Assembly: GCA_035708165.1 (NCBI GenBank)
Contig: DASSSZ010000005.1
Span: forward strand, 40,719-104,718
Direction: 5' to 3'
From: Minisyncoccota bacterium
GTDB taxonomy: Bacteria; Patescibacteriota; Minisyncoccia; Phycocordibacterales; UBA2100
Length of the DNA stretch: 64,000 nt
In this document: piece after piece, positions 1 through 45,185 of the stretch
How the letters are laid out: the number at the start of each line of letters is the position of its first letter
Numbering within the stretch: the stretch's first letter is position 1
Notes under the pieces: model-generated
What the model was told of the DNA's origin: nothing
Database searches by the model: none
What the model saw: only the letters and a program-made list of their open reading frames with translations
Program-made: the position numbers and the translations under genes

Positions 1-1004
1 ACCTCGCAGAGACGACCGGCGGCCGCTATTTCAATATCAGCCTCTCCTCGGAGCACCATATCAATCCGTTCGACCTTGCCGTCCCGCGCGAGGACGAGAA
101 TCCGGCGGACGTGCTGCGGAGCAATATCATCTCGCTCGTGGGGCTGTTCCGCATCATGCTGGGCGGGCTCACGCCGGAGGAAGATGCCATCATCGACAAG
201 GCGATCACTGAGACGTACGCGCTCAAGGACATCACGGCGGATTCCAACTTCGCCGCGATCGAGCCGCCCTTGCTCTCCGATTTCGAGCTCGTGCTCTCCG
301 GCATGGAGGGGAGCGAATCGCTGGTGGCGCGGCTTTCGAAGTACACGAAGGGCACATGGTCCGGCTTCATGAACCGGCCGACGAACGTGGATATGAACAA
401 GCGCCTCGTCGTCTTCTCCGTGCGCGATATGGAAGACGACCTGAAGGCGGTCGCCATGTACATCATCACGCACCATATCTGGAACACTGTCCGCAAGGAG
501 CTCCGCAAGCGGCTGCTCGTGATCGATGAGGCCTGGTGGATGATGAAGTCCGAGGACACCGCATCCTTCCTCTTCGGGATCGCGAAGCGCGGCCGCAAGT
601 ACTATCTCGGCCTCTCCACGATCACGCAGGACGTCTCCGACTTCCTCTCATCGCCGTATGGCGTCCCGATGCTCACGAACTCCTCGATCCAGCTCCTCTT
701 GCGCCAGTCGCCGACCTCCGTCGACCTCGTGCAAGAGACTTTCAAGCTCTCCGACGAGGAGAAATATCTTCTCCTCGAGAGCGACGTGGGTGAGGGCATC
801 TTCTTCGCCGGCCTCAAGCACGTGGCTATCAAGATCATCGCGAGCTACACCGAAGACCAGATCATCACCTCCGATCCTTCGCAGATCCTTGCGATCAGGA
901 AGGCGAAGGAGGAGCTCGCGAACCAGGAGCCGGACGGCGCCGCCGCGGTGGAGGCGCCGGCCATGAGCGCGGCGGCGCAGCTCGCGGCGGGCGGCGAGAA
1001 CTAG
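1..1004 (+). CDS. VirB4/TraC/CagE-like type IV secretion ATPase, C-terminal part (5' end outside window)
   Basis: The open frame runs from position 3 with no stop and no ATG before 111. It contains Walker-B-like LLVIDEAWWMM. It also has C-terminal motifs typical of the VirB4 family (RGRKYYLGLSTITQDVSDF, VVFSVRDMEDD). Confidence 0.6.
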   Translation, partial: LAETTGGRYFNISLSSEHHINPFDLAVPREDENPADVLRSNIISLVGLFRIMLGGLTPEEDAIIDKAITETYALKDITADSNFAAIEPPLLSDFELVLSGMEGSESLVARLSKYTKGTWSGFMNRPTNVDMNKRLVVFSVRDMEDDLKAVAMYIITHHIWNTVRKELRKRLLVIDEAWWMMKSEDTASFLFGIAKRGRKYYLGLSTITQDVSDFLSSPYGVPMLTNSSIQLLLRQSPTSVDLVQETFKLSDEEKYLLLESDVGEGIFFAGLKHVAIKIIASYTEDQIITSDPSQILAIRKAKEELANQEPDGAAAVEAPAMSAAAQLAAGGEN

Positions 1005-1059
1005 CGCGCCGTGCGCCGGTGCGGCGCTTGATGCGACGTGCGCATCGCGCGGAATTCTC

Positions 1060-1377
1060 GTGCCGCGTATACTGCTTGGCATGGAACCGATCACCCAGGG
1101 TACCGGCTTCGCCATGATCGCTGCGGCGCTCGTGGTGGACGGCCTCGAGCTCATCCCGGGCGTCGACATGATCGTGGACCCGATCGCGATGTTCCTGTTC
1201 GCGCACTGGTTCGCGCACCACGGCTACTCGCTGACCAGCAGGCGGCCATTCGGCTACTTCGGCACGGCGGTGATCGAATTCATCCCGTTCATCTCCATGA
1301 TTCCCGCGTGGCTCTTCCTCGTCTGGCTCTCTATCCGCGCACAGCGGCGCGAAGCAGCGCGCGAAGGGGCGGTATAA
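1060..1377 (+). CDS. small integral membrane protein (3 predicted TM helices), unknown function
   Basis: 105-aa ORF of hydrophobic stretches. It sits directly downstream of the VirB4-like gene. Confidence 0.45.
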   Translation: MPRILLGMEPITQGTGFAMIAAALVVDGLELIPGVDMIVDPIAMFLFAHWFAHHGYSLTSRRPFGYFGTAVIEFIPFISMIPAWLFLVWLSIRAQRREAAREGAV

Positions 1378-1384
1378 TGGGCGC

Positions 1385-2458
1385 GTGACCCGCACGCCCG
1401 CAACGCGCACCTGGCTCATCGCGTTCGCGACGATCGCGATCTTCATGCTGCCCGGCGGCTCGCAGGCGATCAGCCTCCCGCTCGGCCTCTCGGGGACGCA
1501 GTACCTGCTCTCGCTTGCCGAGTCGCCGGCTGCTCCGGCGCCTGGCGAGACAGTCTTGTTCACGCTCTCGAGTACGGCGATCGACCTGCCGAGCGCGACG
1601 ATCTCCTGGTACCTCGATGGCACAGCCGAAGCGAGCGGCGTGGGCGTGACGACGTTCGCGACGCAAAGCGGCGCCGCCGGCTCGACGCACACCGTCTCCG
1701 TGGTCGCGGAGGGATCGGACGGGACGGCTGCGGAAACGAAGGCGACGCTGCGGCCTGCCGCGGTCTCGCTCCAGTGGGAAGCGGATTCCTATGTCCCGCC
1801 GTTCTACCGCGGCCGCGCGCTCCCGGCAGCAGGCACGAGCGTCACGGTGCATGCCGACGCGCAGCTCGTCGGGAGCGGTGGCGCGGCGCTGCCGGCATCC
1901 TCGATCCGGTATCAGTGGAGCGTCAACGGCACTCCGCGTGCCGACCTCTCAGGGAACGGGCGGGATACCATCACGATCGCCGGACCCATGCCGCACGGCG
2001 CGCTCGTCGTGGCCGTGACCGCCTCCGCTGATGACGGTACCTACCAGGCAGCTGCGCAAACGCGGATCGCCGCCGTGACGCCCGTCCTCGATCTCTATGC
2101 GGCAGACCCGCTCCTGGGGATCCGGTACGGCGATGCGCTCTCGAACGGCTCCACGCTCTCCGCCGGAAAGGCGACGATCGCGCTCGCGCCGTACTACATG
2201 GCTGCCGCATCGCCTGATTCGTCCGCCCTGTCGTACCGCTGGGAGGTGAACGGCGATCCTGTCCTTGCTGATCCAGGCACGCCTTCGAGGCTCACGCTCG
2301 CCCTTTCAGGGGGCGCCGCCGGTGCCGCTGCGGTCTCGCTCGCGCTTTCCGATTCCTTGGCGGCATTCCAGTCGGCGAGCGGCGCCTGGCAGCTCATGGT
2401 CTCTGCCAATGCCGCATCCACGCCGTTCGGCTCTGCGGCTAAGGCGAACCCGTTCTAA
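1385..2458 (+). CDS. secreted protein with three Ig/PKD-like repeats (GTG start)
   Basis: N-terminal signal peptide (IAFATIAIFMLPGGSQA). Three repeats each carry a W..NG motif: ISWYLDGT, IRYQWSVNGTP, LSYRWEVNGDP. GC-skewed codon usage is consistent with the coding frame. Confidence 0.5.
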   Translation: MTRTPATRTWLIAFATIAIFMLPGGSQAISLPLGLSGTQYLLSLAESPAAPAPGETVLFTLSSTAIDLPSATISWYLDGTAEASGVGVTTFATQSGAAGSTHTVSVVAEGSDGTAAETKATLRPAAVSLQWEADSYVPPFYRGRALPAAGTSVTVHADAQLVGSGGAALPASSIRYQWSVNGTPRADLSGNGRDTITIAGPMPHGALVVAVTASADDGTYQAAAQTRIAAVTPVLDLYAADPLLGIRYGDALSNGSTLSAGKATIALAPYYMAAASPDSSALSYRWEVNGDPVLADPGTPSRLTLALSGGAAGAAAVSLALSDSLAAFQSASGAWQLMVSANAASTPFGSAAKANPF

Positions 2459-2462
2459 TACC

Positions 2463-3779
2463 ATGCCTCGTCTCCCTCGCATCGATCTCGCTCGCTTCTA
2501 CCGCTACGCCATGCCCGTGACGGTCGCCGCGATCATCCTCATCCTGATCGCGCTCGGGATCTGGTTCCTGTACCTGCATGAGAAGCAGTCCGTCACGGAT
2601 GCCGTCTCCGCCGGGCGCGGCTTAGGGACGGACGTCTCGTCGGCGTTCCCGGGCGGCAGCGCGTATCAGAACGTCGTTTCCGCGGTCTCCAGCGTCTTCG
2701 GCGGCGGCACGAGCGCGACGAGCACGCCGGCCGGAGCGACGAAAGCGGCTCCGCAGCTCTGGGAAGTGGCGACCGCGCCCGCTGCCAGCATCACCTTCGC
2801 AAAGGACGGGACCAGCACCGTTGCTCGCTTCCTCGATGCGGCGAGCGGCAACATCTTCGATGCCGATCCGGCCACGAGCGTCATCGCGCGGCGCACGAAG
2901 ACGCTGATGCCGCGGATCGCGCAGGGTGCATGGTACGGCGAGGAAGGGGCCGTCCTGCGCTATGAGGACAATGCAGGCATCGAGACATTCTCCGGATCCA
3001 TCAATGCGGCGACCACCACCGGCTCGCTCTCCGCGACGGAAGCGCAGGCGCTCGCAGCGAACGGGCCGGGCGATCTCGAGGGCGCGATGCTCCCGCGCGG
3101 CATCCTCGATCTCGTCGCCGCCAGCAGCTCGATCTTCTATATCGCCCCGTATAACGGGGAGTACGCAGGCACGATCGCGAAACCGGACGGAAGCGACGCG
3201 AAGCGGATCTGGACCTCGCCCCTCGCAGAATGGCGCGCGCAGTTGGCGGGGAATCGTATTCTGCTCGTGCAGGCTGCATCCGAAGGAGTGACCGGATCGG
3301 CATACGAGCTCGGCACGGACGGCTCATCGAGCCTCGTGCTCGCCAACCTGCCAGGGCTCGCCGCGCGCGAGAATGCGACGACGCACGCGATCCTCTACAG
3401 CACCGTGGGCGGATCGGGTGCGATCACGCTTTCGGTGCGTGCATCGGATGGGAAGGTGCAGACGCTCCCGTTCGCGACGTTCGCTGATAAGTGCGCATGG
3501 GACCCGGCCGCGCCGTCTGTCGTCTACTGCGCCGTGCCGCACGCGATCCCGCAGGGGAGCGTGCTCCCAGACGCGTGGTATCGTGGCGAAGTCCACTTCG
3601 ACGATGCGATTTGGCGCTTCGATACCGCGACGGGCTCCGTCTCGCAGGCATACGACCCGCATGCCGCGAACCGCTCGCTTGATATACTGGATCCGATGGT
3701 GAGCCCGGATGGCACCTACTTGGCATTCCGCGATGCGGCAAGCGGCACCGGCTGGGTGCTCCGGCTCACGGCGAAGTGA
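2463..3779 (+). CDS. membrane-anchored protein with a possible PD40/TolB-like beta-propeller segment
   Basis: ATG at 2463 follows the stop of the upstream ORF. A single N-terminal TM helix (VTVAAIILILIALGIWFLYL) is present. The C-terminal motif SPDGTYLAFRDAASGTGW resembles a PD40 repeat. The track ORF 2265..3779 is an upstream in-frame extension. Confidence 0.45.
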   Translation: MPRLPRIDLARFYRYAMPVTVAAIILILIALGIWFLYLHEKQSVTDAVSAGRGLGTDVSSAFPGGSAYQNVVSAVSSVFGGGTSATSTPAGATKAAPQLWEVATAPAASITFAKDGTSTVARFLDAASGNIFDADPATSVIARRTKTLMPRIAQGAWYGEEGAVLRYEDNAGIETFSGSINAATTTGSLSATEAQALAANGPGDLEGAMLPRGILDLVAASSSIFYIAPYNGEYAGTIAKPDGSDAKRIWTSPLAEWRAQLAGNRILLVQAASEGVTGSAYELGTDGSSSLVLANLPGLAARENATTHAILYSTVGGSGAITLSVRASDGKVQTLPFATFADKCAWDPAAPSVVYCAVPHAIPQGSVLPDAWYRGEVHFDDAIWRFDTATGSVSQAYDPHAANRSLDILDPMVSPDGTYLAFRDAASGTGWVLRLTAK

Positions 3780-3780
3780 T

Positions 3781-5280
3781 ATGCGCGCACGACTCTTCCC
3801 ACCCCTGCTCATGTTCGCGCTCGCGGCGTGCATCGTAGCCGTCGCGTTGCCGCTTTCCGCCCATGCTGCCGTGCAGGCAGATTGCATCGATACGGCCGCT
3901 GGGTGCGCGACGGCAGGGAGTGCCGCCGGCGCATTCACGCCGCTTACTGATCTCTCGAACACCCCGTTCGCATCCCTGCTGACGGCGAACGAGACCCTCC
4001 CGAAGTTCCTCCGCTGGGCATTCAATTTCGCAATCAGTCTCGGCGCGCTCCTGGCTGTGATCGAGATCGCCTTCGGCGGCTGGCAGTACATGACCGCGGA
4101 AGCGTTCAATAAGAAATCGGATGCGCGCAAGCGCATCCAGAACGCACTCATCGGGCTCCTCATGCTGCTCTCGACCATACTCGTCCTCAATCAGATCAAT
4201 CCGCAGATCACCAGCCTCTCCCTCTTCGAGGACGCGGCACCCGCAGTCGCGCAGACTGGTACGACGGGTGCGACCGATACCGGGACGCTCACCCACGATC
4301 CTACGGGAAGCGGAAAGATCTGCGCGTACCAGGGCACCGACGCCAGCGGCGTCGCGTCATACCGCTGCTTCACGACGCTCGCTGCATGCGAATCCGTCAT
4401 CGGCGCCGCAGGGAATGCGTGCGTGCCATACAACTCCGAGGGTTCGGAAACGACCGCTCCGCTGCCAGGCGAGTACTGCGCGCCGGATGGCAAGACGCAG
4501 GCAGGCGGGAATGTGCTCACGACGCAGTATCGCTGCTTCAGCCAGCAGGCGGCCTGCGAGACAGCCATGCCGGACGCGACCTGTGTCTCCGGAGACTCGC
4601 TCAGCGATAGCTATACGAATGAAGCCTGGGTCACGCAGACCGAATGCAGCACGCGCGGCCCGGGCTGGCAGCCCGTCGCGCCGGCGCTCTGCGGCGCGAG
4701 TACTGCCGGCAGCGGGGTATGCTGCGGCATGGCGAGCACGGTGACGGTCCAAGGCAACGGCAGCCTCACTGGTCACGCGGCGCTTGTCACTGATTTCCCG
4801 GTAGGGTACTGGTGCGCTGACAATCAGGCCGGCGGCTTCGACTGCTTCGCGCAGCAAAGCGCATGCAGCGCGAAGTACTCGCAGGGCTGCGGGCAGTACG
4901 ATGTCGCGTTCCCGGCCGTAGATGCCTCCTCGCAGATTACCGCGCCGCTGTGGTGCGATATCGAGAACGATACGTATACGTGCTCCGCGAGCCAGGACAT
5001 CTGCACGAACACCTTCGGCAGCGCATGCAGCCAGGTTGAGCCGCAGCAGCAACAGCAGCAACAGACCGTGACGCAACAGGCTTACACCGATCCGCATTTC
5101 TATACTGATCTCCAGGTCGCCGAAGCAGGCGCAACCCCGTTGAATGAATGCGAGAGTCTCACTGGCAAGGCTGGCTACGAAGTGGCGCCCGCGAGCGTCT
5201 GCAGCAGCATCAATCTCCTGGGTTCGTCGGGCATCTGCTGCGGATTGGTCTCGTCGAGCGGACAGTCGGACGGGCAATAG
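3781..5280 (+). CDS. VirB2/TrbC-like pilin-type two-helix module fused to a Cys-rich internally repeated extracellular domain
   Basis: Signal peptide (LMFALAACIVAVALPLSAHA) is followed by an amphipathic/hydrophobic pair (WAFNFAISLGALLAVIEIAFGGWQYMTAE ... IQNALIGLLMLLSTILVL) resembling conjugative pilins. Repeated Cys motifs are YRCF...AAC E, VCCGMAS and ICCGLVS. A polyQ run (QQQQQQQ) comes from a CAG/CAA tract at ~5044-5064. Confidence 0.45.
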   Translation: MRARLFPPLLMFALAACIVAVALPLSAHAAVQADCIDTAAGCATAGSAAGAFTPLTDLSNTPFASLLTANETLPKFLRWAFNFAISLGALLAVIEIAFGGWQYMTAEAFNKKSDARKRIQNALIGLLMLLSTILVLNQINPQITSLSLFEDAAPAVAQTGTTGATDTGTLTHDPTGSGKICAYQGTDASGVASYRCFTTLAACESVIGAAGNACVPYNSEGSETTAPLPGEYCAPDGKTQAGGNVLTTQYRCFSQQAACETAMPDATCVSGDSLSDSYTNEAWVTQTECSTRGPGWQPVAPALCGASTAGSGVCCGMASTVTVQGNGSLTGHAALVTDFPVGYWCADNQAGGFDCFAQQSACSAKYSQGCGQYDVAFPAVDASSQITAPLWCDIENDTYTCSASQDICTNTFGSACSQVEPQQQQQQQTVTQQAYTDPHFYTDLQVAEAGATPLNECESLTGKAGYEVAPASVCSSINLLGSSGICCGLVSSSGQSDGQ

Positions 5281-5294
5281 GGAAGAGTCCGGGA

Positions 5295-5334
5295 GGAAAA
5301 AGTAATATCCATTAAAATGGATATTACTTTTTCC
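5295..5334. terminator. AT-rich perfect 18-bp inverted repeat (ggaaaaagtaatatccat taaa atggatattactttttcc), probable bidirectional terminator
   Basis: Perfect palindrome read directly from the sequence. It lies between the stop of 3781..5280 and the promoter-like TTGACC(17 bp)CATACT upstream of 5396. Confidence 0.5.
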
Positions 5335-5395
5335 TGCCATCGAATTTTCCCCACCGTGCGGTTGACCCTCAAGATGAGGAGTTCATACTGCCCCT

Positions 5396-8300
5396 ATGAG
5401 TGACACCGCGTTCCGCATGCACGCCATGCGCGATGAATACGCGTGTTTTCTGGCGGCCGTATGTGCCGCCCTCGTCTTTTCCCTTACGCCGCTGCTTGTG
5501 CACGCAGCCGATATCCATGCGATTGATCACCTGTTCACGGGCGGCGGGGCGGTCATCCATGATGGCGATACGGTTACGAGAGATTCATTCTCATCCCTGA
5601 GCCCTGTCTGGCAGGCGTATAGCGATTGGCCCTATGCCGTGCCGGATGGGCAGGGAGCGACGGCAGTCTTCCTCGGGACATTCGGGGATGTGGCTGGCGG
5701 GGCACTCTCTCCTGATGTGAACTACTACTATTACGACAATGGCGGGTACGGATGGCCGGCGGGAGACTCGGTCCAGGCATTCCATGCACCGTTTCCCGAG
5801 CTCGGTGCGCTCAATGCGCCGTCTGCGACCTATACCGTCATGCAAGCCAAGCTGGCGACCAGCTCGGCGCATGACTGGAAGTCTGCGATCGAGTGGTTCG
5901 CATCCGGCGGCGCGACTAGTACGCCGCCGGTCGATTACTCGTTCCTGACGTTCCATTACGTCGCGACAAGCTCGCCGGAATTGATCGCTGATGGCATTTC
6001 GAGCGTGAGGTATGAAGGATTGACGATTCATCCGAGCGATACGGTATACCTGGATGATCTTACGCCGCGTCCGGCGAGCGCCTATGCGACCGGGAATCCA
6101 TGGGACGTAGTGACTGATTGGCCGGGTGCTGTAAGCGGCGGGAATGATGCTGATATCTATCTGTTCCATGGTACGTTCGGGAACCTGGCAGGTGCGCCTG
6201 CGCTCGAGGAAAACTATTATGATCAGGAGATAAATATCCTCCCATCCGGGCAGCCTGATCGTGAAGCAACGCCATCCGGCAATACGTTCTTCGGGTCGTT
6301 CGGTTCCACGACGCCGGACGGGAATTATACGGTGATGGTCGATGAACGAGACCCGAAGGATGGCCCGCTTTCGGGTGCTGGCATTCCCGAATGGTTCGCA
6401 TCCGGCGGTGCGACGGGCACGCCGCCCCTCAAGTACGCCCTGCTGACGTTCACGTATAAGAAGTATCACGAGTGCTGCTCGAATGTGGCATTCCTGCCGG
6501 GCATCGAGGGAAGCGTTCTCAAGGAGGGGGATCAGACCGTCTGGCCGCCGCAGCTCCGTCACTCAGTCGACGATTTGGCCGCGCTCTCATTCAATCCGGA
6601 TGGTACGCCGACACGAGCTGATATCCAGGTCGCAGGAATCGTGAATCAGGCTGATATCGGCTTTTGGAATATACCGGGTATCGATACGGCACCTGATATC
6701 TACCAGGGCTTCACTGATCATATGAATAATCTCGTGACGAGCGGGACGATCAGGGAATGGAAGCCGCTGCCGTATGATTGGCGATTCTCTCCCGAGTACA
6801 TCGTATCGCATGACGTGATGGCAACGAGCGGGCCGGTGAGCCTGACATCTGAGGTCGAGCAACTTGCTGCTGATTCGCCGACTGGCAAAGTGACGCTGGT
6901 CGCGCACTCATACGGTGGTCTTGTCGGCAAGGCGCTCATTAAGGCGCTGATGGATAAGGATGAAGGTGGTCTTATTGATAATTACGTGATGATTGCATCG
7001 CCACAGGAGGGGACACCCCAAACAGTTGGTGAGATGTTGCACGGAGAGAGGGCCAATCTACCCATTCAGATTCCTGGTACTAGTATTAATATCGGAAGCC
7101 TCACAACAAAAACACAAGGACGAGCTCTCGGCATGTACTTGCCTATGGCCTATATTCTCCTTCCCTCCGCTAACTATCTTCAGGACGTGGCATATCAACC
7201 TGTCGAATTCGATGCCTCCGCGCCACAGACCCAGAGCTGGCGTGAGACATGGGGCTCCGCACTAAGTACGCTGCAGGAATTGGATGATTTCCTGACCGGG
7301 AACGGTCCGGATCGGGCAAGGCCTTCTGCGGACGATACGCAGGACCCGGCAGTGCTTGATGCCAGTCAGCTGCAAACTGCGCAGGCATACCATGCTGCGT
7401 TCGATGATTTTTCGTTCGCAAGTACGACGCATGTCATCCAGATTGCCGGGTGGGGGAATCCGACAATCCAAGGAATCCTGTATACGCAAGATCAAGGGAG
7501 GCTCGATTACCGTCCAATGCTGAGTCTGGAAGGGGATGATACGGTCATGGCTCCGAGCGCAGTATCGACCGAGACGAGCTCTACGAGCAGCTACTATTTC
7601 AATCTAAACGAATATCATGCCTTGACTGACCATTCGAGTGGGCATGCATTACTCCCGGCATCCGCACCGGTCCTTGTCGAGCTCGATACGATCATCCAGA
7701 AGCTGCCGATCGTCCTGAATCAGTATTTCACGGCTACGAAACCGGATCTCTCCAGCCTGCCGAAGGAGCTCCTGGCGAGCGTGCACTCTCCGCTCTCGCT
7801 CAGCGCAACCGATGCTTCGGGCAACTATACAGGCCTGACTCCTGGGCAGGATCCGGATACGGATATGCGCCTCATCACGAACGGGATACCAGGAAGCCGA
7901 TACCTCACGTATGGCGACGGCAAGTACCTCATTGTCCCCGAAGGGAACACCTACACCTTCTCGCTCGCCGGCATGGCGACCGGCCCTGCAACTATCGAAT
8001 TGCAGGAGATGGCGAACGGCACGACGACCACACTCGCGACCTATTCGGATGTTCCGGTCTCGACTACGACGAAGGCGACATTCACGATCACGGCGACAAC
8101 GACGACGCCAGATATCTCGCTCGATCAGAATGGGGACGGGGTGCCAGATGCGACTGTCGCACCTGATGGAAGCTCTCAGGCGCCAGACCAGATTGTCTCG
8201 GAACTCGAAGCGGCAATACAATCGCTCGATATCGCCAAGCGGTACGAGAAGGATCTATACAGGCAGGCAAAGAAGCTGGGAAAGCTCGTGACGAGGCTTG

Positions 8301-8596
8301 AGAAGGATGATGCGAAAGCCGCAAAGCAGCAAAGCCAACAGAAGCGACGCGCTAGCACGATTTCGCTCGGCAGTTTCTTCAACATCGCACCCATTCAATT
8401 CGATGTGCCGGATGGAGATTTCCTGGGAACATTATTCGATACGACAATGCACCGCACGGAGGTCAGTGCGATTCGCATCTCCACCGACGTGCTGAAGCAG
8501 GTGATTGAGCAGTATGCGCGCCGAAGCATCCTGACATCGTCTGATGAAAAGAAGCTGGATATATTGCTTGGCGATCTTATGGACGCGATACGATAA
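5396..8596 (+). CDS. large secreted alpha/beta-hydrolase-fold protein (lipase/LCAT/PGAP1-like GHSxG) with N-terminal duplicated domains and a C-terminal coiled-coil
   Basis: Signal peptide is present. The nucleophile-elbow motif is VTLVAHSYGGLVGKAL. An internal duplication pairs FLGTFGDVAGG with FHGTFGNLAGA. A second pair is EWFASGGATSTPPVDYSFLTFHYV and EWFASGGATGTPPLKYALLTFTYK. The C-terminal segment is K/E-rich and helical. The central ~1.7 kb has visibly lower GC than the ends. Confidence 0.6.
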   Translation: MSDTAFRMHAMRDEYACFLAAVCAALVFSLTPLLVHAADIHAIDHLFTGGGAVIHDGDTVTRDSFSSLSPVWQAYSDWPYAVPDGQGATAVFLGTFGDVAGGALSPDVNYYYYDNGGYGWPAGDSVQAFHAPFPELGALNAPSATYTVMQAKLATSSAHDWKSAIEWFASGGATSTPPVDYSFLTFHYVATSSPELIADGISSVRYEGLTIHPSDTVYLDDLTPRPASAYATGNPWDVVTDWPGAVSGGNDADIYLFHGTFGNLAGAPALEENYYDQEINILPSGQPDREATPSGNTFFGSFGSTTPDGNYTVMVDERDPKDGPLSGAGIPEWFASGGATGTPPLKYALLTFTYKKYHECCSNVAFLPGIEGSVLKEGDQTVWPPQLRHSVDDLAALSFNPDGTPTRADIQVAGIVNQADIGFWNIPGIDTAPDIYQGFTDHMNNLVTSGTIREWKPLPYDWRFSPEYIVSHDVMATSGPVSLTSEVEQLAADSPTGKVTLVAHSYGGLVGKALIKALMDKDEGGLIDNYVMIASPQEGTPQTVGEMLHGERANLPIQIPGTSINIGSLTTKTQGRALGMYLPMAYILLPSANYLQDVAYQPVEFDASAPQTQSWRETWGSALSTLQELDDFLTGNGPDRARPSADDTQDPAVLDASQLQTAQAYHAAFDDFSFASTTHVIQIAGWGNPTIQGILYTQDQGRLDYRPMLSLEGDDTVMAPSAVSTETSSTSSYYFNLNEYHALTDHSSGHALLPASAPVLVELDTIIQKLPIVLNQYFTATKPDLSSLPKELLASVHSPLSLSATDASGNYTGLTPGQDPDTDMRLITNGIPGSRYLTYGDGKYLIVPEGNTYTFSLAGMATGPATIELQEMANGTTTTLATYSDVPVSTTTKATFTITATTTTPDISLDQNGDGVPDATVAPDGSSQAPDQIVSELEAAIQSLDIAKRYEKDLYRQAKKLGKLVTRLEKDDAKAAKQQSQQKRRASTISLGSFFNIAPIQFDVPDGDFLGTLFDTTMHRTEVSAIRISTDVLKQVIEQYARRSILTSSDEKKLDILLGDLMDAIR

Positions 8597-8601
8597 CTTA
8601 T

Positions 8602-9078
8602 ATGAGCAAATCAAATCCATTTCTTCTTTTATCGCTCGGAATCTCGATAGCGATGATTGCTCTGGGGTATATTTTTGCTCACGCAAGTGCGTTTGGTTTA
8701 TGTCATGATGACCTAGCAAGAAATATCTTTGATATTTACTGTGACAACTTCTATTGGTACATCGGGAATGCTCTTATTTATGGCATGTCAGCTCTCGCAA
8801 TAGTCTTCTTCGCTCTCCTGCTCGTTCCCAAGGCATTCTCCTGGTGGTGGAAATTCGCAATCTGGTTCGTACCGCTTGATGGATTCATCCTCATTGGGGT
8901 TAGGCCGTCCGATGCGATTTTCAGTCTCGAGCCTTCGCCGGATGAGATGTACCTTCTATTCAGCGGGCTCTACGTCGTCATTTCGCTCATCATCATTATC
9001 GCAGCCTGGCTGTGGCGAAAACCCAGCATGGAGCTGAATAAGAACACACCCGGTCGTGAGAGTCGGATATTGGCTTGA
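8602..9078 (+). CDS. small membrane protein, paralog A1 (AFSWWWKFAIWFVPL motif)
   Basis: Hydrophobic 158-aa ORF in the low-GC island. Its 3' end reads into repeat element R1. Confidence 0.55.
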   Translation: MSKSNPFLLLSLGISIAMIALGYIFAHASAFGLCHDDLARNIFDIYCDNFYWYIGNALIYGMSALAIVFFALLLVPKAFSWWWKFAIWFVPLDGFILIGVRPSDAIFSLEPSPDEMYLLFSGLYVVISLIIIIAAWLWRKPSMELNKNTPGRESRILA

Positions 9079-9108
9079 AGAGCGGGCACTAGTGTTTTTC
9101 CTGCCAGG
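9031..9108. repeat. repeat element R1 (degenerate copy) of a ~70-78 bp intergenic element
   Basis: Shares gagctgaataagaa(a)cacccgg(c)tcgtgagag(t/c)cgg...ttggcttgaagagcgggcactagtgtttttcctgcc with copies at 9727-9797 and 10272-10350. Confidence 0.7.
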
Positions 9109-9185
9109 AGCGGTTCGCGCCTAGATGCGCAGAAGAAGCTGCATAACTTGCTTGAAGATCTTACGAACGCAGTACAATAAGGACC

Positions 9186-9668
9186 ATGAATGCTCCATTT
9201 AATGACCTCCTGTTTTATTTCGTTCTTTTTTGCGCGCAATTTATTCCTTGGATTGTATTCCTGGGGGTTCCTGGGAAAAAAAGAGGAATCTCTCCGTCAC
9301 TTAGATGGATTTGGGCAACCCCGATTGCGGTTCTGACAATATTGGAAGTATTGGCGTATTTGGGATATGAATGGAGCCTCGGGATATTGTGGTTTATTTT
9401 TCCACTCCTTTTTTCCATTCTATCTACTGTAGTCTCATTATCTTATGTCTCACGACCCATTAAAGGACTGCGCCTGGCATTTCCGCTGATACTATTTTTC
9501 CAGGCTCTAGTGGCAATTTTCGCCTTTATCTTTGGTTATCTTGCAGCTGCGTTCTTTACGGGGATTGCATCTGTAATCAGTGGCGGAGCTTTCATGCAAG
9601 GGTTCGGATGGATTGTTCTACTTCCATTTTTATTAACTGGCAATTTTCAGATTAACTTTTGGATGTAA
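9186..9668 (+). CDS. multi-pass membrane protein (4-5 TM), unknown function
   Basis: 160-aa hydrophobic ORF. It is preceded by the repeated promoter-like block gctgcataacttgcttgaagatc...agtacaat. Confidence 0.5.
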   Translation: MNAPFNDLLFYFVLFCAQFIPWIVFLGVPGKKRGISPSLRWIWATPIAVLTILEVLAYLGYEWSLGILWFIFPLLFSILSTVVSLSYVSRPIKGLRLAFPLILFFQALVAIFAFIFGYLAAAFFTGIASVISGGAFMQGFGWIVLLPFLLTGNFQINFWM

Positions 9669-9726
9669 ATAACTCCGGCTCATGGGTGCGGTTTTTGTTT
9701 GAAGATATTTCAGGTCATACAAAACA

Positions 9727-9797
9727 AATAAGAAACACCCGGCTCGTGAGAGCCGGGTGTTGGCTTGAAGAGCGGGCACTAGTGTTTTTCCTGCCAG
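9727..9797. repeat. repeat element R2 with perfect 10-bp stem / GTGA (GNRA) tetraloop hairpin (cacccggctc gtga gagccgggtg) and downstream T5
   Basis: Direct reading. Best-conserved copy of the element. Confidence 0.75.
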
Positions 9798-9882
9798 TAA
9801 CGGTTTCGAACTCATTCGAATTCAGATGCGCTGAAGCTGCATAATTTGCTTGAAGAGCTAAAAAGCACAGTACAATGAGAAC

Positions 9883-10278
9883 ATGTTGAAGAGGGACCCT
9901 AAAGTAATCTTTATATTGCTTGCAGTCATTTCCGCAGCCATTGCGTGCGTCGGGTTACTCGGAATGGACCTCATCGGACCCGCTCTCGTGTACGGGATGG
10001 GTGCCTTGGCGGTCGCATTCATTGCGCTTGCGCTGGTTCCGGGAGCGTTTTCTTGGTGGTGGAAATTCGCAATTTGGTATGTGCCTCTTGCTTGCTATCT
10101 TTTTGTCAGGATTATAGTGAGTGACATAAAACTGAAATCAATACCGATGTGGAATTTTTTTAATCCACCAGCATATATTCAATTTCTCTGGATTGCCGGC
10201 ACGTATTTATTTGTCAGCTGTATCTTAGTGGCCCTTTTCCAGCTATTACACCGGACTGAAGCATCGCACCGGAGCTGA
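9883..10278 (+). CDS. small membrane protein, paralog A2 (AFSWWWKFAIWYVPL motif)
   Basis: 131-aa ORF with clear protein-level similarity to 8602..9078. It is preceded by the same promoter-like block (ttgaag N15 tacaat). Confidence 0.55.
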   Translation: MLKRDPKVIFILLAVISAAIACVGLLGMDLIGPALVYGMGALAVAFIALALVPGAFSWWWKFAIWYVPLACYLFVRIIVSDIKLKSIPMWNFFNPPAYIQFLWIAGTYLFVSCILVALFQLLHRTEASHRS

Positions 10279-10350
10279 ATAAGAAACACCCGGCTCGTGA
10301 GAGTCGGGTGCTAGCTTGAAGAACTGTTCGCTAGGGTTTTTCCTGCCGGG
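10272..10350. repeat. repeat element R3 (hairpin with one G-U wobble)
   Basis: gagctgaataagaaacacccggctcgtgagagtcgggtg...ttttcctgccgggg. It overlaps the 3' ends of the convergent genes 9883..10278(+) and 10331..10768(-). Confidence 0.7.
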
Positions 10351-10883: not shown

Positions 10884-12617
10884 ATGTACATCAGCGACAC
10901 GCACCTCAAGGAATTCCTCCTCGATGCAGGCCTCGTCTCGAAGCAGGCGTTCGAGGATGCGGGCAGGAAGGCGAAGGAGAACGGCAACTCGATCGGCGAG
11001 GAGCTAGTCTCGGCCGGCGTCATCGGCGAGGACGAGCTGCGCCGCACGCAGGCGTACATCCTCGGCATCCCGTTCGTGAACCTCGCGGGCACGAAGATCG
11101 ATTACGACACGCTCTCTCTCATCCCCGAGCCGGTCGCGCGGCGCAACAACATCATCTCGTACAAGCAGGACGGCGACGACCTGCAGGTGGCGATGCTCAA
11201 TACGGACGACCTCGAGGCCATCGATTTCATCAAGAAGAAGACGCACCTCAAGATACAGCCGCGCCTCACGGATGTGGCCTCCATCAAGTACGCGCTCAAG
11301 CTCTACCAGCAATCGCTCAAGGACAATCTCGGCGAGGTCATCCGCAAGGAGACGGAGGCGATGGCGCAGATGCCGGACGGCGAGGAGGATCCGCGCAAGC
11401 TCGCAGAAGGCCTGCCGGCCGTGCGCGTGGTGGATACGCTGCTGCGCCATGCGATCGCGCAGAATGCATCGGATATCCATATCGAGCCGCAGGAGGAGAC
11501 ACTGATCATCCGCTACCGCATCGACGGGCTCCTGCATGATGCGATGATCCTGCCGAAGACGGCGCACGCCGGCATCGTGGCGCGCATCAAGGTCCTCACG
11601 AACCTGCGTCTCGACGAGAAGCGTCTCCCGCAGGATGGCCGCTTCGCGATCGAGGAGGCGGGGGAGCGTGTCTCATTCCGCGTTTCGATCCTGCCCACTT
11701 ACTACGGCGAGAAGATCGTGATCCGCATCCTGCGCGAGCGGCAGAGCGGCTTCACGCTCGAGAAGCTTGGCTTCCATGGCGACGCGCTCGAGCAGATCCA
11801 CGACGCGATGCGCCGCACGACGGGCCTCATCCTCACCACCGGCCCGACAGGCGCCGGAAAGTCCACCACGCTCTACACGCTGCTCGACCTCCTGAATACG
11901 CCGGATGTGAACATCTCCACGGTGGAAGACCCGATCGAGTACCAGATGCAGCGCATCAATCAGACGCAGGTCCAGCCGGATATCGGCTTCACATTCGCTT
12001 CCGGCCTGCGCAGCCTGGTGCGCCAGGACCCGGACATCATCATGGTGGGCGAGATCCGCGACGGCGAGACGGCCGCGCTCGCCATCAATGCCGCGCTCAC
12101 CGGCCACCTCGTGCTCTCCACGCTCCATACCAATAGCGCCGCTGGCGCCATCCCGCGCCTGATCGACATGGGCATCGAGCCGTTCCTCCTCGCCTCGACC
12201 TTGCGGGTGATCATCGGCCAGCGTCTCGTGCGCAAGCTCTGCGATGACAAGGCGGAGCGCCCGCTCACGCGCGATGAGACGAGCCGCCTCGAAGAGGCGT
12301 TCGATCTCGGCGTCGTCCTCAATGCCCTCAAGGAAGAGAAGGTCGTGGGCAAGGAAACGACCTGGAAGAACGTGCCCTTCTTCGGCCCGGCCGAGAACGG
12401 CAAGTGCCCGGACGGCTATTCCGGCCGCGAAGGCATCTACGAGGTGCTGAACGTGACGGAAGACATCAAGACGCAGATCACCGGCGGCGCGACGTCCGAT
12501 GACATCGCGGCGACGGCCAAGCAGCATGGCATGCTCACCATGGGCGAGGACGGCATCTTCAAGGCAGCACAGGGGATCACGACGATCGAGGAAGTGCTTC
12601 GTGTCATCAGCGAGTAG
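10884..12617 (+). CDS. pilB: type IV pilus / type II secretion assembly ATPase PilB/GspE family
   Basis: Walker A GPTGAGKSTTLY, Asp box and His box are present. A C-terminal tetracysteine motif is CDDK...C..C. An N-terminal GspE_N-like domain is present. Length is 577 aa. Confidence 0.95.
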   Translation: MYISDTHLKEFLLDAGLVSKQAFEDAGRKAKENGNSIGEELVSAGVIGEDELRRTQAYILGIPFVNLAGTKIDYDTLSLIPEPVARRNNIISYKQDGDDLQVAMLNTDDLEAIDFIKKKTHLKIQPRLTDVASIKYALKLYQQSLKDNLGEVIRKETEAMAQMPDGEEDPRKLAEGLPAVRVVDTLLRHAIAQNASDIHIEPQEETLIIRYRIDGLLHDAMILPKTAHAGIVARIKVLTNLRLDEKRLPQDGRFAIEEAGERVSFRVSILPTYYGEKIVIRILRERQSGFTLEKLGFHGDALEQIHDAMRRTTGLILTTGPTGAGKSTTLYTLLDLLNTPDVNISTVEDPIEYQMQRINQTQVQPDIGFTFASGLRSLVRQDPDIIMVGEIRDGETAALAINAALTGHLVLSTLHTNSAAGAIPRLIDMGIEPFLLASTLRVIIGQRLVRKLCDDKAERPLTRDETSRLEEAFDLGVVLNALKEEKVVGKETTWKNVPFFGPAENGKCPDGYSGREGIYEVLNVTEDIKTQITGGATSDDIAATAKQHGMLTMGEDGIFKAAQGITTIEEVLRVISE

Positions 12618-12718
12618 CAGTAGGCGCTTGCTGATCCTCTCTCGCCAATCATCCCATCCCATCCGCATCCACACGCCGTGCGTCTCGCTCGCACAGCGTA
12701 CGCGTATACTGGTAAGGA

Positions 12719-13936
12719 ATGACGCAGTACCGCTACACGGCGCAGAAGATGGGCGGGGAGACCTACACCGGCGCAGCGGAAGCGCCGGATCGCTTCGCGC
12801 TCTATGAGATGATCCGCCGCGAGGGCGGGAAGGTCGTCTCGGTGGAAGAGGACAGCACGAGCAAGAAGCTCTCCTTCGCGTACTGGAACGCGAAGATCGC
12901 CACCGTTCCCGAGCGGGAGAAGATCCTCTTCGCGCGCAATCTCGCGGCGATGCTGAAGGCAGGCCTCGCGCTCTCCCGCGCGCTCTCAGTGATCGAGCGG
13001 CAGACCAGGCAGGCGAAGTTCGCGAGCGTGCTCGCGCAGATCGGCAGCGAAGTGCGCCGCGGCACCTCGTTCCATGACGCGCTCGCGCAGTACCCGCACG
13101 TCTTCTCGCGCATCTTCATCGCGATGGTGAAGGCGGGCGAGGAGAGCGGCAACCTGCCCGGCTCGCTCGTCACCATCAGCGATCAGATGAACGAGTCGTA
13201 TACGCTCAAGAAGAAGGTGCGGAGCGCGATGATCTATCCCACCATCATCATCGTGGCGATCATCGGCATCGGTGCTGTGCTCCTCACGACCGTGGTGCCG
13301 ACATTGGCCGAGACCTTCAAGGAGCTCGGCGCTCAGCTGCCTGCGACGACGCAGTTCGTCATCAATCTCTCTGATTTCCTCGTGGAGAACACGCTGCTCG
13401 CGCTCGCCATCGCGATCATCGTCATCGTCGGGTTCATGGCGGGCCTGCGCACGACGATCGGCAAGCGGCTCTCGGCCCAGGTCGCCGTGCACATGCCGCT
13501 CATCGGTCCGGTCGTGAAGGAGGTGAACGCGGCGCGCACCGCCCGCACGCTCGGGAGCCTCCTGCACTCGAGCGTGGACATGCTGGCGGCCCTCGAGATC
13601 ACGACGGAGGTCGTGCAGAACCCGCTCTTCCAGGATGTCTTGCGCGAGGCGCATGAGGCTGTCGCCAAGGGCGATCAGCTGCCCGCTGTCTTCATGCGCC
13701 ATGAGAACCTCTATCCGCCGCTCGTCGGCGAGATGCTCTCGGTCGGCGTCGAGACGGGTCAGCTCTCGGAGATGCTGACGCGGCTCGCGGAGATCTACGA
13801 GGAGAGTGTCTCGACGACGACGAAAGACATGTCGACCATCATCGAGCCGTTCCTCATGCTCATCATCGGCAGCGCCGTCGGCTTCTTCGCGGTGGCCATG
13901 ATCAGCCCGATCTACTCGCTCTCGAGCGCGATCTAG
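12719..13936 (+). CDS. pilC: type IV pilus platform protein PilC/GspF family
   Basis: Two T2SS-F repeats flank three TM helices. It lies immediately downstream of pilB, preceded by RBS aagga and a TATACT -10. Confidence 0.9.
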   Translation: MTQYRYTAQKMGGETYTGAAEAPDRFALYEMIRREGGKVVSVEEDSTSKKLSFAYWNAKIATVPEREKILFARNLAAMLKAGLALSRALSVIERQTRQAKFASVLAQIGSEVRRGTSFHDALAQYPHVFSRIFIAMVKAGEESGNLPGSLVTISDQMNESYTLKKKVRSAMIYPTIIIVAIIGIGAVLLTTVVPTLAETFKELGAQLPATTQFVINLSDFLVENTLLALAIAIIVIVGFMAGLRTTIGKRLSAQVAVHMPLIGPVVKEVNAARTARTLGSLLHSSVDMLAALEITTEVVQNPLFQDVLREAHEAVAKGDQLPAVFMRHENLYPPLVGEMLSVGVETGQLSEMLTRLAEIYEESVSTTTKDMSTIIEPFLMLIIGSAVGFFAVAMISPIYSLSSAI

Positions 13937-13956
13937 CCTGTGCGGCGCAAAGAAAG

Positions 13957-13989
13957 GGCCCCTCGCGAATGCGAGGGGTCGTTTGTTTC
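13957..13989. terminator. rho-independent terminator (ggcccctcgc gaat gcgaggggtc + gtttgtttc)
   Basis: Perfect 8-9 bp GC stem followed by a T-rich tract. It sits between convergent pilC(+) and 13988..14251(-). Confidence 0.7.
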
Positions 13990-14251
13990 AGGCGAGCCGG
14001 AGCTCGTGGTGCCCGGCTGTGGTCGGGCCGATAAGGAGCGGATGCGCGAGGATCTCGCATCCGTCGCGCGAGGCCCGCACGAGTACGCGCGAGGCATCGC
14101 CCGGCATCGGCTCGATCTGCACGAGATCGCCCGGGCGCACGTCCGCGCCCGCCTTCGGCGGCACGCGGAAGCCGCCGCCATCTGCGAAGCACGCGAACGC
14201 GATCCCGCTCGGGCGCGTGTGCACCTCTGCGACCGTGGTCCGATAGCGCAT
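13988..14251 (-). CDS. small protein, possibly cupin-like (tentative)
   Basis: 87-aa ORF convergent with pilC, separated from it by a bidirectional terminator. The motif RPGDLVQIEPMPGD is weakly cupin-like. Confidence 0.3.
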   Translation of the reverse strand: MRYRTTVAEVHTRPSGIAFACFADGGGFRVPPKAGADVRPGDLVQIEPMPGDASRVLVRASRDGCEILAHPLLIGPTTAGHHELRLA

Positions 14252-14344
14252 GAAGCTTCTCCTGTGGTAGTGCTAACCGGCGCGAGCGTACCATAGCGGC
14301 CGCACGCGCCGCAAGCCTTCGCCGGAGTCCGGTACAATAGGCGC

Positions 14345-16063: not shown

Positions 16064-16680
16064 CCACGCATGCTATGACGAGAAACGCAGGATGGAGAAG
16101 ACGGGGCATGACGTTCATCGAAGCGATCGTCTGGGTCGCGATCTTCACGATGGCGATGGTCGCCATCACGGAGACGCTCATCAGCTTCTACCGCGCCAAC
16201 GCCTATACGCTCGAACAGGGCGCGGCAGTCGAGAGCGCCCGTGCCGGTATCACCGCCACCGTCAAGGAGATCCGCGAAGCGCAGTACGGTAGCGACGGCG
16301 CATACCCGATCGTTTCGATCGCGCCGGATTCCTTCTCCTTCTACAGCGACGTGAATGACGATCCGTACGTCGAGGAGGTGACCTATACGCTCGACGGCAC
16401 GAACTTCGTGCGCGGCGTCCTCTCTCCTTCGGGCGATCCGCTCGCGTACGCGGGCACAGCTGCGACCAGCACGGTCTCCGATAACGTGCGCAATGCCGCG
16501 CAGGGCGTGAACGTCTTCACCTACTACGATAAGAATGGCAACGTGATCACCGATTACAGCAAGACGACGGATGTGCGCTACGTAGTGATCGACCTCGTGG
16601 TGAACGTGAACCCGTCGCGTGCGCCGCACGACCTCACGCTCGAGAGCAGCGCAGCGCTGCGCAACCTGGTCGCGCGATGA
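16060..16680 (+). CDS. type IV pilin / pseudopilin (minor-pilin-like)
   Basis: N-terminus RRG|MTFIEAIVWVAIFTMAMVA is a canonical prepilin peptidase site with Glu at +5. It overlaps the upstream gene by 4 nt (ATGA). Confidence 0.75.
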   Translation: MTTHAMTRNAGWRRRGMTFIEAIVWVAIFTMAMVAITETLISFYRANAYTLEQGAAVESARAGITATVKEIREAQYGSDGAYPIVSIAPDSFSFYSDVNDDPYVEEVTYTLDGTNFVRGVLSPSGDPLAYAGTAATSTVSDNVRNAAQGVNVFTYYDKNGNVITDYSKTTDVRYVVIDLVVNVNPSRAPHDLTLESSAALRNLVAR

Positions 16681-34273: not shown

Positions 34274-34449
34274 GCGCCGCAGGATCGCGCAGGAGGCATC
34301 CGCGCGCTGCATCTTGCGGCGAGGAGCCGCACAGGAGCGCCGTTTTGCAATCGCCTCCGTTTCCTGGTACTCTTCGGGCACGCTTCGCGCGGCTTTTTAT
34401 TTGCATTCGCGCGGCCGCGCACTACTTATTTACTTCATCGATACGAGCT

Positions 34450-38124: not shown

Positions 38125-38292
38125 TCGCGGGATCTCCCGAAACGGCTGCACTATCGCTGAGCGATGGTACGCGTTACTGTGCTGGCGCGCATGCTGGTGG
38201 CATGCATACGGCCCGGAAGCGTATAGTGCAGTTATCCCCAACGCGAGATGCATGCGCCGGCAAAGGAAACTCATGCGCGGTACACTAAACGC

Positions 38293-44902: not shown

Positions 44903-45185
44903 CGCCTCGCAAGCCTCTGAAAGACGCGCGGAGCCTGCGGCCCGCGCGTCTTTCGCGCGTATGCACCGGTTGCGCATATGGCTTGACGTAGCGCATATGC
45001 TTGGATAGTATTGCGGCACGCAGAGGCGTTTTTTGTTTGCTCATTGCCAGGCCGGAATCAGCCACACTGGGCGGCAGGATCGCATACTGCACCTTATTAT
45101 CCAGCGGAGTTGCTAGAGAAGAGGGAAGGTTCTCGTGCCCCCATCTCTGGTAGCTCGGTTCGTATGGCTAACTACTGATAATCGT

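Follow-up and report, generated by a model that had tools for sequence, protein, structure and literature searches.

The first 10.4 kb of a 64,000-nucleotide stretch of the Minisyncoccota contig DASSSZ010000005.1 (the whole stretch is called the window here) holds nine genes, all on the plus strand, which we designate g1 to g6 and tm1 to tm3 (Table 1). They comprise type IV secretion system (T4SS) genes (g1 to g5), a gene for a large exported lipase-like enzyme of the LCAT/LPLA2 family (g6), and genes for small membrane proteins (tm1 to tm3). We read the region as two independent modules that probably came to lie side by side incidentally. Module 1 (1..5280) is the distal half of a chromosomal, conjugation-derived T4SS typical of Patescibacteria. 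Besides VirB4 it encodes g3 and g4, two exported or surface proteins that evolve fast, and a VirB2-like pilin whose ectodomain is large and Cys-rich, and its transcription would most likely stop at the hairpin behind g5. Module 2 (~5290..10350) would be a horizontally acquired island made of the g6 enzyme and the small membrane proteins.

Table 1. Features at the start of the window and selected genes downstream (TM, transmembrane; GC3, GC content at third codon positions)
Feature	Position in window	Strand	Description and basis
g1	3..1004	+	VirB4-type T4SS ATPase, C-terminal ~40%; gene begins upstream of window; NCBIfam, Pfam, relatives
g2	1060..1377	+	105-aa small hydrophobic protein; hydrophobic segments
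g3	1385..2458	+	357-aa secreted protein, weak PKD/Ig-like repeats; signal-peptide-like N-terminus
g4	2511..3779	+	422-aa protein anchored by N-terminal TM segment; start from Logan contig gene call
g5	3781..5280	+	499-aa VirB2-like pilin module with Cys-rich ectodomain; last gene of T4SS cluster
Hairpin between g5 and g6	5294..5335	+	Terminator-like 19-bp perfect hairpin and T-run; left edge of low-GC island
g6	5396..8596	+	1066-aa predicted Sec-signal LCAT/LPLA2-family alpha/beta hydrolase; Pfam LCAT, fold, triad
g6 domains	residues ~1-38, ~39-360, ~361-785, ~786-925, ~926-1066		Signal peptide; two tandem ~160-aa repeats; catalytic domain; beta-sandwich; helical tail
g6 catalytic residues	6908-6910, 7535-7537, 7643-7645		Ser505, Asp714, His750
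Leader repeat D2, three copies	8551..8600, 9135-9184, 9833-9882	+	72-82% identity over 50 nt, in register with next start codon
tm1	8602..9078	+	158-aa four-helix membrane protein; start 5 nt after g6 stop
Trailer repeat D1, three copies	9037..9115, 9727-9805, 10278-10356	+	79 nt; each ends in TTTTTCCTGCC
tm2	9186..9668	+	160-aa polytopic membrane protein; lowest GC3 (0.385); same cassette frame, shares leader and trailer repeats
tm3	9883..10278	+	131-aa diverged tm1 paralogue; keeps every family-invariant residue
Type IV pilus gene set	10884..18116	+	Directly after island
PilB/GspE	from 10884	+	T2SSE 1.5e-120
PilC/GspF	from 12719	+	Pfam/NCBIfam scans
572-aa protein with CarboxypepD_reg domains; PilX_N-like protein	within 10884..18116	+	
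fusA	34345..36624		
Two large Gp34-domain proteins	38248..40089, 43097..44902	+	Phage long-tail-fibre Gp34 trimerisation domain (E ~5e-28)
tuf	45135..46382		

From its sequence and modeled structure together, g6 is predicted to be a genuine LCAT/LPLA2-fold enzyme exported by Sec. It scores above the gathering threshold of the Pfam LCAT model (PF02450; 37.4 bits, cut-off 21; E 2.3e-9), and the same model matches 43/43 proteins of the family that a database search returned, g6 included; their source names are patescibacterial or unspecific throughout. g6 itself has a Sec-type signal, and 33 of the 43 begin with a signal-peptide-like sequence. The residues H504, S505, G507, G508, G713, D714 and H750 are invariant in the alignment of the 43. 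When g6 was used in a profile search of the PDB, LPLA2 (lysosomal phospholipase A2) came out on top (4.8e-7), followed by Tle4 of the Tle4-Tli4 complex (4r1d_A, 2e-6) and then LCAT, with the AHSxG and GDGTV motifs of g6 aligned to their LPLA2 counterparts. The AlphaFold2 (AF2) model exceeds a predicted local distance difference test score (pLDDT) of 90 over residues ~360-925, which hold the catalytic domain and the beta-sandwich; the N-terminal ~340 residues are poorly modeled and residues ~930-1066 are helical. Foldseek matched this model to LPLA2 (E 1.5e-11, probability 1.00, template modeling score 0.68 on the target), LCAT (E 1e-9) and Tle4 (4r1d, E 4.4e-9). An earlier note on this DNA had described g6 as a 1066-aa secreted alpha/beta hydrolase with a GHSYG nucleophile elbow. 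The signal, the Pfam match and the LPLA2/LCAT fold bear out the description of the protein, and the invariant S505/D714/H750 and the confident model place the motif in a catalytic-triad context, but the elbow itself reads AHSYG.

How close is g6 to its eukaryotic relatives? With LCAT (4xwg) and LPLA2 (4x90) it shares the AHSxG elbow, the GD(G/D)TV motif around the Asp and a downstream invariant His, and these proteins provide its best sequence-profile and fold matches. However, identity is only ~15-16% and g6 is about three times larger; it has a Sec signal and variable repeats at the N-terminus and, farther on, a beta-sandwich and a C-terminal tail that varies. The tandem repeat at its N-terminus has an internal similarity of E 3e-17, and across the lipase family the N-terminal domains are highly variable (beta-helix, repeats, others). 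A search of IMG/VR found no lipase relative, which leaves phage carriage unsupported.

Some other loci add observations on the enzyme. Two LCAT-like homologues of ~24% identity (loci L075 and L078) carry a C-terminal hydrophobic TM anchor of their own; L078 has no small TM gene downstream, and the small TM protein encoded at L075 (146 aa) is of a different kind. These anchors hint that membrane tethering may matter for the enzyme. At locus L093 (2689..11279 of that sequence), the lipase and two small membrane proteins are followed within 5 kb by a DNA methyltransferase, a GDSL lipase and an M23 peptidase, an exported-hydrolase cluster that might act jointly on a host envelope.

Which gene accompanies the lipase across genomes? 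We assembled 80 lipase loci from one-genome-per-species contigs by a family alignment search, 68 of them patescibacterial, and looked up three more individually. The four-TM family represented by tm1 lies immediately downstream of the lipase, on the same strand, in 32 of the 56 evaluable species-level loci after profile iteration, with gaps or overlaps of 0-12 nt between the two genes. Another small protein with two to four TM segments occupies the slot in about nine more of the 56. The same four-TM family was found after lipase genes in unrelated lineages, and a reverse search starting from its members recovered a lipase directly upstream in 3/3. These neighborhoods indicate that the conserved partner of the lipase is an unannotated four-TM family and not the T4SS.

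The partner family is numerous. A profile search of 1.84 billion cluster representatives returned 509 members, nearly all of 130-170 aa. The AF2 model of tm1 has four helices (6-26, 45-74, 76-99 and 113-138) and a Cys-pair loop (pLDDT 79), and conservation in the family is strongest inside the membrane, in the TM2-loop-TM3 region. No significant match to the tm1 model was found in the PDB with Foldseek, and scans of seven members against Pfam and NCBIfam gave noise only; the family has no model in either collection. Hits to AmaP (E 0.0045) and DUF4418 (0.05) were rejected as matches between hydrophobic segments. In the window, tm3 is 44% identical to tm1 (BLASTP E 1e-19). tm2 shows no similarity to the tm1/tm3 family and has no homologue in the fetched loci.

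Two further observations concern the chromosomal setting and integrity of the pair. The gene for ribosomal protein L10 (rplJ) follows the lipase, or a single small TM gene behind it, at loci L005, L027, L031, L043 and L066, and the module thus has a recurrent chromosomal position beside rplJ-rplL in part of the family. In the 377-aa protein P0075 from the representative library, the N-terminal domain and the first ~50 residues of an LCAT-like catalytic domain are joined directly to the second half of the four-TM family, as if the junction of lipase and partner had been lost in an internal deletion, or as if the assembly were chimeric.

The small membrane genes of the window are arranged as repeated cassettes. 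Copy 1 of the leader repeat D2 is the 3' end of g6, and copies 2 and 3 directly precede tm2 and tm3. We read these last two copies as probable relics of an LCAT-type 3' end (KLHNLLEDLTNAVQ-stop and KLHNLLEELKSTVQ-stop). The protein-level match of the ~16-aa relics before tm2 and tm3 is weak (E ~1.7); the reading is offered because the 50-nt DNA repeat is in register with the start codons and because clear orphan fragments exist at other loci. Behind the genes, every copy of the trailer repeat D1 contains a GC-rich hairpin, CACCCGGCTC-GTGA-GAGCCGGGTG, with fold z scores of -4.2 for copy 2 and -2.7 for copy 3, and the last copy forms the right edge of the island.

Arrays of partner paralogues occur in the window and at loci L002, L021, L036, L040 and L098, and three of these other loci retain lipase fragments. 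At L098, a 99-aa orphan open reading frame stands behind the lipase-partner pair and is itself followed by a second partner gene. The orphan matches the C-terminal 98 residues of the L036 lipase with 50% identity (BLASTP E 2e-32; tblastn E 6e-22), and the second partner is closest to the partners found behind lipases with an L036-like beta-rich tail (L036, L047, L020 and L051). The first partner groups with those behind lipases with a helical, leucine-rich tail. L021 has a fragment 97% identical to the tail of its own lipase, followed by a partner only ~30% identical to the first, and L036 has an 81% lipase fragment followed by a 60% partner. By analogy, intact and diverged partners behind lipase fragments resemble toxin-immunity loci with orphan modules, such as those known from contact-dependent inhibition, Rhs and type VII secretion.

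The borders of module 2 are marked in the DNA itself. The region between g5 and g6 (5281-5395) folds with -50.5 kcal/mol (z -7.2). The 11-mer TTTTTCCTGCC occurs exactly four times in the 64 kb, all on the plus strand, at 5328, 9095, 9785 and 10337, against 0.02 expected. The first copy (5328-5338) lies partly inside the g5-g6 hairpin element, and the four copies mark both island edges and two internal cassette borders, each at the end of a hairpin/T-run element. GC3 is 0.78-0.89 in g1-g5 and 0.89-0.92 in pilB/pilC, compared with 0.63 in g6 and 0.39-0.54 in tm1-tm3. Together, the hairpin, the break in GC3 and the four border copies of TTTTTCCTGCC argue that ~5290..10350 is probably an imported island, separate from the T4SS, with the T4SS cluster on its left and the type IV pilus genes on its right. 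The 11-mer could act as a terminator common to these elements or mark a site of recombination. It was not found at the lipase loci of other genomes, and a role as a general site of the lipase family was rejected, as it occurs only in this genome's island and at one unrelated position. A scan for promoter and terminator consensus sequences gave counts equal to chance and was not used; the hairpins were folded independently.

Since the lipase lies next to a T4SS in this genome, we determined how frequently the two occur together. VirB4 was present within 10 kb at 1 of the 68 patescibacterial loci (Falkowbacteria L065) and at 1 of the 3 further loci (Kaiserbacteria). These two neighbors in 0.857 Mb of flanking sequence (71 loci) compare with 0.7-1.7 expected by chance, assuming one randomly placed virB4 per 0.5-1.2-Mb genome. 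The lipase is not linked to the T4SS, and its co-occurrence with VirB4 is at chance level. Moreover, members of the lipase family carry Sec signal peptides and therefore need no T4SS to leave a monoderm cell.

The T4SS genes themselves can be placed with confidence at the VirB4 end. As the earlier note had proposed, the window opens inside a VirB4/TraC-type ATPase: g1 matches NCBIfam NF045971 (VirB4-like, CD1110 family; E 1.1e-52, model positions 459-733 of 752), TraC-F-type (2.5e-32) and VirB4_CagE (1.9e-20), as well as Pfam P-loop_TraG (1.2e-15), with NCBIfam scores under the full-length cut-offs only because the window edge truncates the gene. Its translation contains a Walker B-like motif (LLVIDEAWW), and the position of Walker A falls upstream of the window. 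Identity of g1 is 95% over the final 316 aa of the VirB4 at locus L092, which has 618 aa, and 75% to the VirB4 of Kaiserbacteria L008. The small membrane protein that the note placed downstream is the hydrophobic g2, for which we found no Pfam or NCBIfam family and no match anywhere in the fetched loci. We located two relatives, L091 and L092, through their g5 homologues; neither has a g2 counterpart between VirB4 and the g3 homologue, where the gaps are 80 nt and 3 nt, respectively.

The exported proteins behind VirB4 are less easily named. For g3, called a secreted Ig-repeat protein in the note, the signal-like start stands, but the PKD and K319L-like_PKD matches in Pfam (E 2e-4 to 2e-3) are below threshold. 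Its homologues follow VirB4 directly in L092 (47% identity) and L091 (42%). The gene call for g4 came from a 7.3-kb Logan contig covering window positions 290..7548; the locus is present in Logan run SRR25158513, from the source soil sample. g4 homologues are 48% identical in L092 and 45% in L091. The beta-propeller label of the note is putative, with a faint PD40 hit (E 0.066) as its sole trace in Pfam, and a PDB profile search returned no match. By this comparison, g3 and g4 appear as conserved post-VirB4 components in this lineage. The note also described g5 as a VirB2/TrbC-like pilin fused to a Cys-rich domain. The layout agrees: a signal peptide with an AHA-A cleavage-type motif read from the sequence, hydrophobic segments beginning at residues 1, 76 and 118, two TM helices (residues ~71-140), and a ~330-aa ectodomain with 27 Cys and a poly-Q stretch. 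The pilin assignment is softer, with a match to PF18895 (T4SS_pilin) under the gathering score (17.5 bits, cut-off 26.6; E 0.0043) and one of 0.021 to the NCBIfam Mbov_0395 pilin-like model. The NCBI name of g5 is 'pilin', PF18895 is present in four of the five non-identical homologues found (P0046-P0049), and 499 aa is outside the small-pilin range (about 100-150 aa).

The two relatives also show how the cluster is bounded in other genomes. In L092, the order is a polytopic VirB6-like protein, a 163-aa protein, PrgI/VirB3-like, TraC-like/TrsD, VirB4 and the homologues of g3, g4 and g5, the last with 37% identity. L091, whose sequence breaks off inside virB4 (92% identical to g1 over 152 aligned residues), has the same order from VirB4 onward (VirB4-g3-g4-pilin), with the g5 homologue in the same position. 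In both, the cluster ends at the pilin gene, and convergent jag-yidC follows with no lipase there; beyond it lie rnpA in L092 and dnaA-dnaN in L091. The Kaiserbacteria locus has the same upstream T4SS components, adjoining ksgA. The genes upstream of our window are inferred from L092, and the 'remnant' of the earlier note is an artefact of the window edge, as the relatives show a complete cluster upstream of VirB4. A side observation is the uneven divergence between window 1..5280 and L092 4057..8283: VirB4 is 95% identical as protein (82% as DNA) and the next three proteins 37-48%, and GC is ~48-51% in L091/L092 versus ~65% here. This pattern suggests fast evolution or exchange of surface-exposed T4SS-associated genes.

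This T4SS is a known one. Quinonero-Coronel et al. (2025, Microb Genom; PMC12102498) related patescibacterial VirB4 to monoderm MPF-FATA systems, found TrsD, PrgI/VirB3, VirB6 and VirB2-like PF18895 pilins close to virB4 with no relaxase, located the systems near dnaA, rnpA and ksgA, and regarded VirB4-centred loci as candidate host-interaction systems, a proposal that the earlier note repeated. The main text of that survey does not mention LCAT or lipases, and PF02450 is absent from the portion of its supplementary tables that our search covered. Our cluster shares with the published system a CD1110-family VirB4, as in monoderm conjugation, a VirB2-like PF18895-type pilin near virB4, and, in its relatives, TrsD/TraC-like, PrgI/VirB3-like and VirB6-like genes upstream and a position beside rnpA, dnaA or ksgA. 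It differs in that the g5 pilin has 499 aa with a Cys-rich ectodomain and is not a short pilin, in the post-VirB4 proteins g3 and g4, which lack an assigned T4SS role, and in its abutting the lipase island and type IV pilus genes rather than jag-yidC-rnpA. The T4SS half is thus an already catalogued patescibacterial system, in which nothing is new except the unusually large Cys-rich pilin.

How might the lipase module work? The overall model that we favor, and hold to be rather probable, is a Sec-secreted phospholipase or acyltransferase with immunity-like membrane partners, independent of the T4SS. After export by the Sec pathway, the Ser505-Asp714-His750 triad of g6 would deacylate or transacylate phospholipids of neighboring membranes, whether of the host or of rival epibionts, with lysolipids and fatty acids as products; it is the fold that suggests such activity. 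tm1, together with the extra cassettes tm2 and tm3, would provide dedicated partners of g6, and their most probable task would be to shield the single membrane of the producing cell against its own enzyme and related ones. Within the overall model, we put this immunity-like role at roughly even chances because the two genes are tightly coupled, the partners are duplicated and diversified, and intact partners are retained behind lipase fragments. That the partners dock the enzyme or take up its products is a tentative option, the less probable of the two.

Known toxin-immunity systems offer partial parallels. Tle4 of the Pseudomonas aeruginosa type VI secretion system (Tle4-Tli4, 4r1d) is among the top sequence and fold matches of g6, and in both cases an alpha/beta hydrolase that attacks (here, would attack) membrane lipids is encoded beside a dedicated partner gene. 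Unlike Tle4, g6 would be delivered by Sec and not by type VI secretion. Tli4 is a periplasmic protein, whereas the partner here is a four-TM integral membrane protein without similarity to it, and its immunity role is only putative. Small polytopic membrane immunity proteins and orphan arrays are known from the pore-forming colicin immunity proteins, the TsaI arrays of Staphylococcus, and the orphan C-terminal toxin-immunity modules of contact-dependent inhibition (CDI) and Rhs systems. These resemble the lipase loci in having a protein of about 110-180 aa with three or four TM segments directly after a membrane-targeting exported toxin, in tandem diversified copies, and in toxin 3'-end fragments kept before extra immunity genes. 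They differ in that our partner has no sequence or fold relationship to them, and in that here the catalytic domain is conserved while the N-terminal region and the non-catalytic tail vary.

Could the pair instead serve nutrition? In a lipid-harvesting scenario, the LCAT-like enzyme would act on host membranes as a phospholipase A, with lysolipids and fatty acids as its products, and the partner would be a dock for the enzyme tail or a device that takes up or flips the products. Patescibacteria lack lipid synthesis and are enriched in lysolipids (PMC7242380), the closest folds, LCAT and LPLA2, are phospholipase A enzymes and transacylases, and the module is widespread in Paceibacteria-type lineages. 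Other features would suit harvesting as well: the strongest conservation of the partner is inside the membrane, the partner's subtype follows the tail type of the enzyme, and the enzymes of L075 and L078 carry a C-terminal TM anchor of their own. However, intact partners persist behind enzyme fragments (L098, L021, L036 and the window), which is hard to explain for an enzyme-dependent dock or transporter, non-homologous small TM proteins fill the same slot (tm2; L012, L017, L022 and others), and the module looks accessory and horizontally moved here. We therefore regard harvesting as possible but rather unlikely, and the stronger proposal, that LCAT-like enzyme and four-TM partner are the missing lipid-acquisition device of Paceibacteria-type Patescibacteria, as more doubtful still.

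The model of the earlier note, in which lipase and T4SS form one functional unit and the lipase is an effector translocated by the adjacent T4SS or working jointly with it where the cell touches its host, now seems highly unlikely. In its favor, the two are adjacent on the same strand here, both modules are surface- or host-facing, the literature has a T4SS as essential for the epibiotic growth of a cultured saccharibacterium, and the lipases of L065 and L008 also lie near T4SS genes. Set against this are the Sec signal peptide on the lipase, relatives with the same T4SS gene order and no lipase, the chance-level co-occurrence with VirB4, the strong hairpin and compositional break between the modules, the lipase's own four-TM neighbor, and the published T4SS neighborhood survey, which has no LCAT/PF02450 in its main text or in the portion of its supplementary tables that our search covered. 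Another idea, that g6 is a housekeeping envelope enzyme which remodels the cell's own surface lipids or lipoproteins with the small membrane protein as a substrate-presenting or regulatory subunit, fits the acyltransferase activity that LCAT-family enzymes have in addition to hydrolysis, the tight two-gene operon across many lineages, and the position beside ribosomal genes at several loci. The highly variable N-terminal domains (beta-helix, repeats, others), the orphan cassettes and paralogue arrays, the island-like composition here and the absence of the module at the equivalent position in relatives all speak against it, and we consider it very improbable.

Several points weigh against the immunity-like, T4SS-independent model that we prefer. 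The partner is about as conserved as the enzyme, with its best-conserved part inside the membrane, which also fits transport or docking. Tli4 and other known lipase immunity proteins are either soluble or lipoproteins, unlike the four-TM partner. Co-descent of whole modules may account for part of the correlation between tail type and partner type, and the hydrophobic amino-acid composition of the tm genes could explain part of their low GC, though GC3 argues otherwise. Finally, three independent lineages place the lipase near a T4SS (the window; Kaiserbacteria L008, at ~8 kb and divergent; and Falkowbacteria L065, two genes downstream of VirB4), and with about 70 loci a weak functional association between the two may still exist.

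The remainder of the window provides context. A type IV pilus gene set directly follows the island, so that T4SS, lipase island and pilus genes form one stretch of surface-machinery genes; downstream of the pilus genes lie TIM, PGK, RecJ and ComEC. Farther on, the two large proteins with a Gp34 trimerisation domain, one of which also has a Peptidase_S74 intramolecular chaperone domain and the other a glycine-rich domain, are encoded between fusA and tuf, an otherwise conserved region. These proteins may serve in attachment to the host as fibre-like adhesins, or may be what is left of a prophage. An Rfam scan of the whole 64 kb gave no family at gathering score, tRNA genes included.

What do these findings mean for Patescibacteria? 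According to published work, these bacteria are rich in lysolipids, for which phospholipase A could be the source (PMC7242380), and no mechanism of lipid uptake or breakdown has been identified in them (PMC11665869). How lipid-auxotrophic epibionts breach or harvest foreign membranes yet spare their own single membrane is an acknowledged question (PMC11665869, PMC7242380). In our literature searches we met no paper that connects Patescibacteria with LCAT-family enzymes or describes toxin-immunity-type loci of their own, and searches on LCAT or lipase in Patescibacteria and on Southlakia lipases gave nothing specific. The T4SS half of the locus was already known; the lipase with its four-TM partner is a new variation on the theme of an exported lipase with a partner. 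The contrast between the two halves warns against inferring an effector role from T4SS adjacency in small, densely packed genomes. If the module did turn out to be a lipid-acquisition device, it would explain the lysolipid-rich membranes of bacteria unable to make lipids. The orphan-cassette architecture suggests, by analogy, that Patescibacteria may also run toxin-immunity-style arms races. Altogether, an exo-enzyme with a predicted LCAT/LPLA2 fold and an unannotated four-TM family of at least 509 cluster representatives offer a concrete, cloneable candidate pair with which to approach the question of how these epibionts attack foreign membranes and spare their own.

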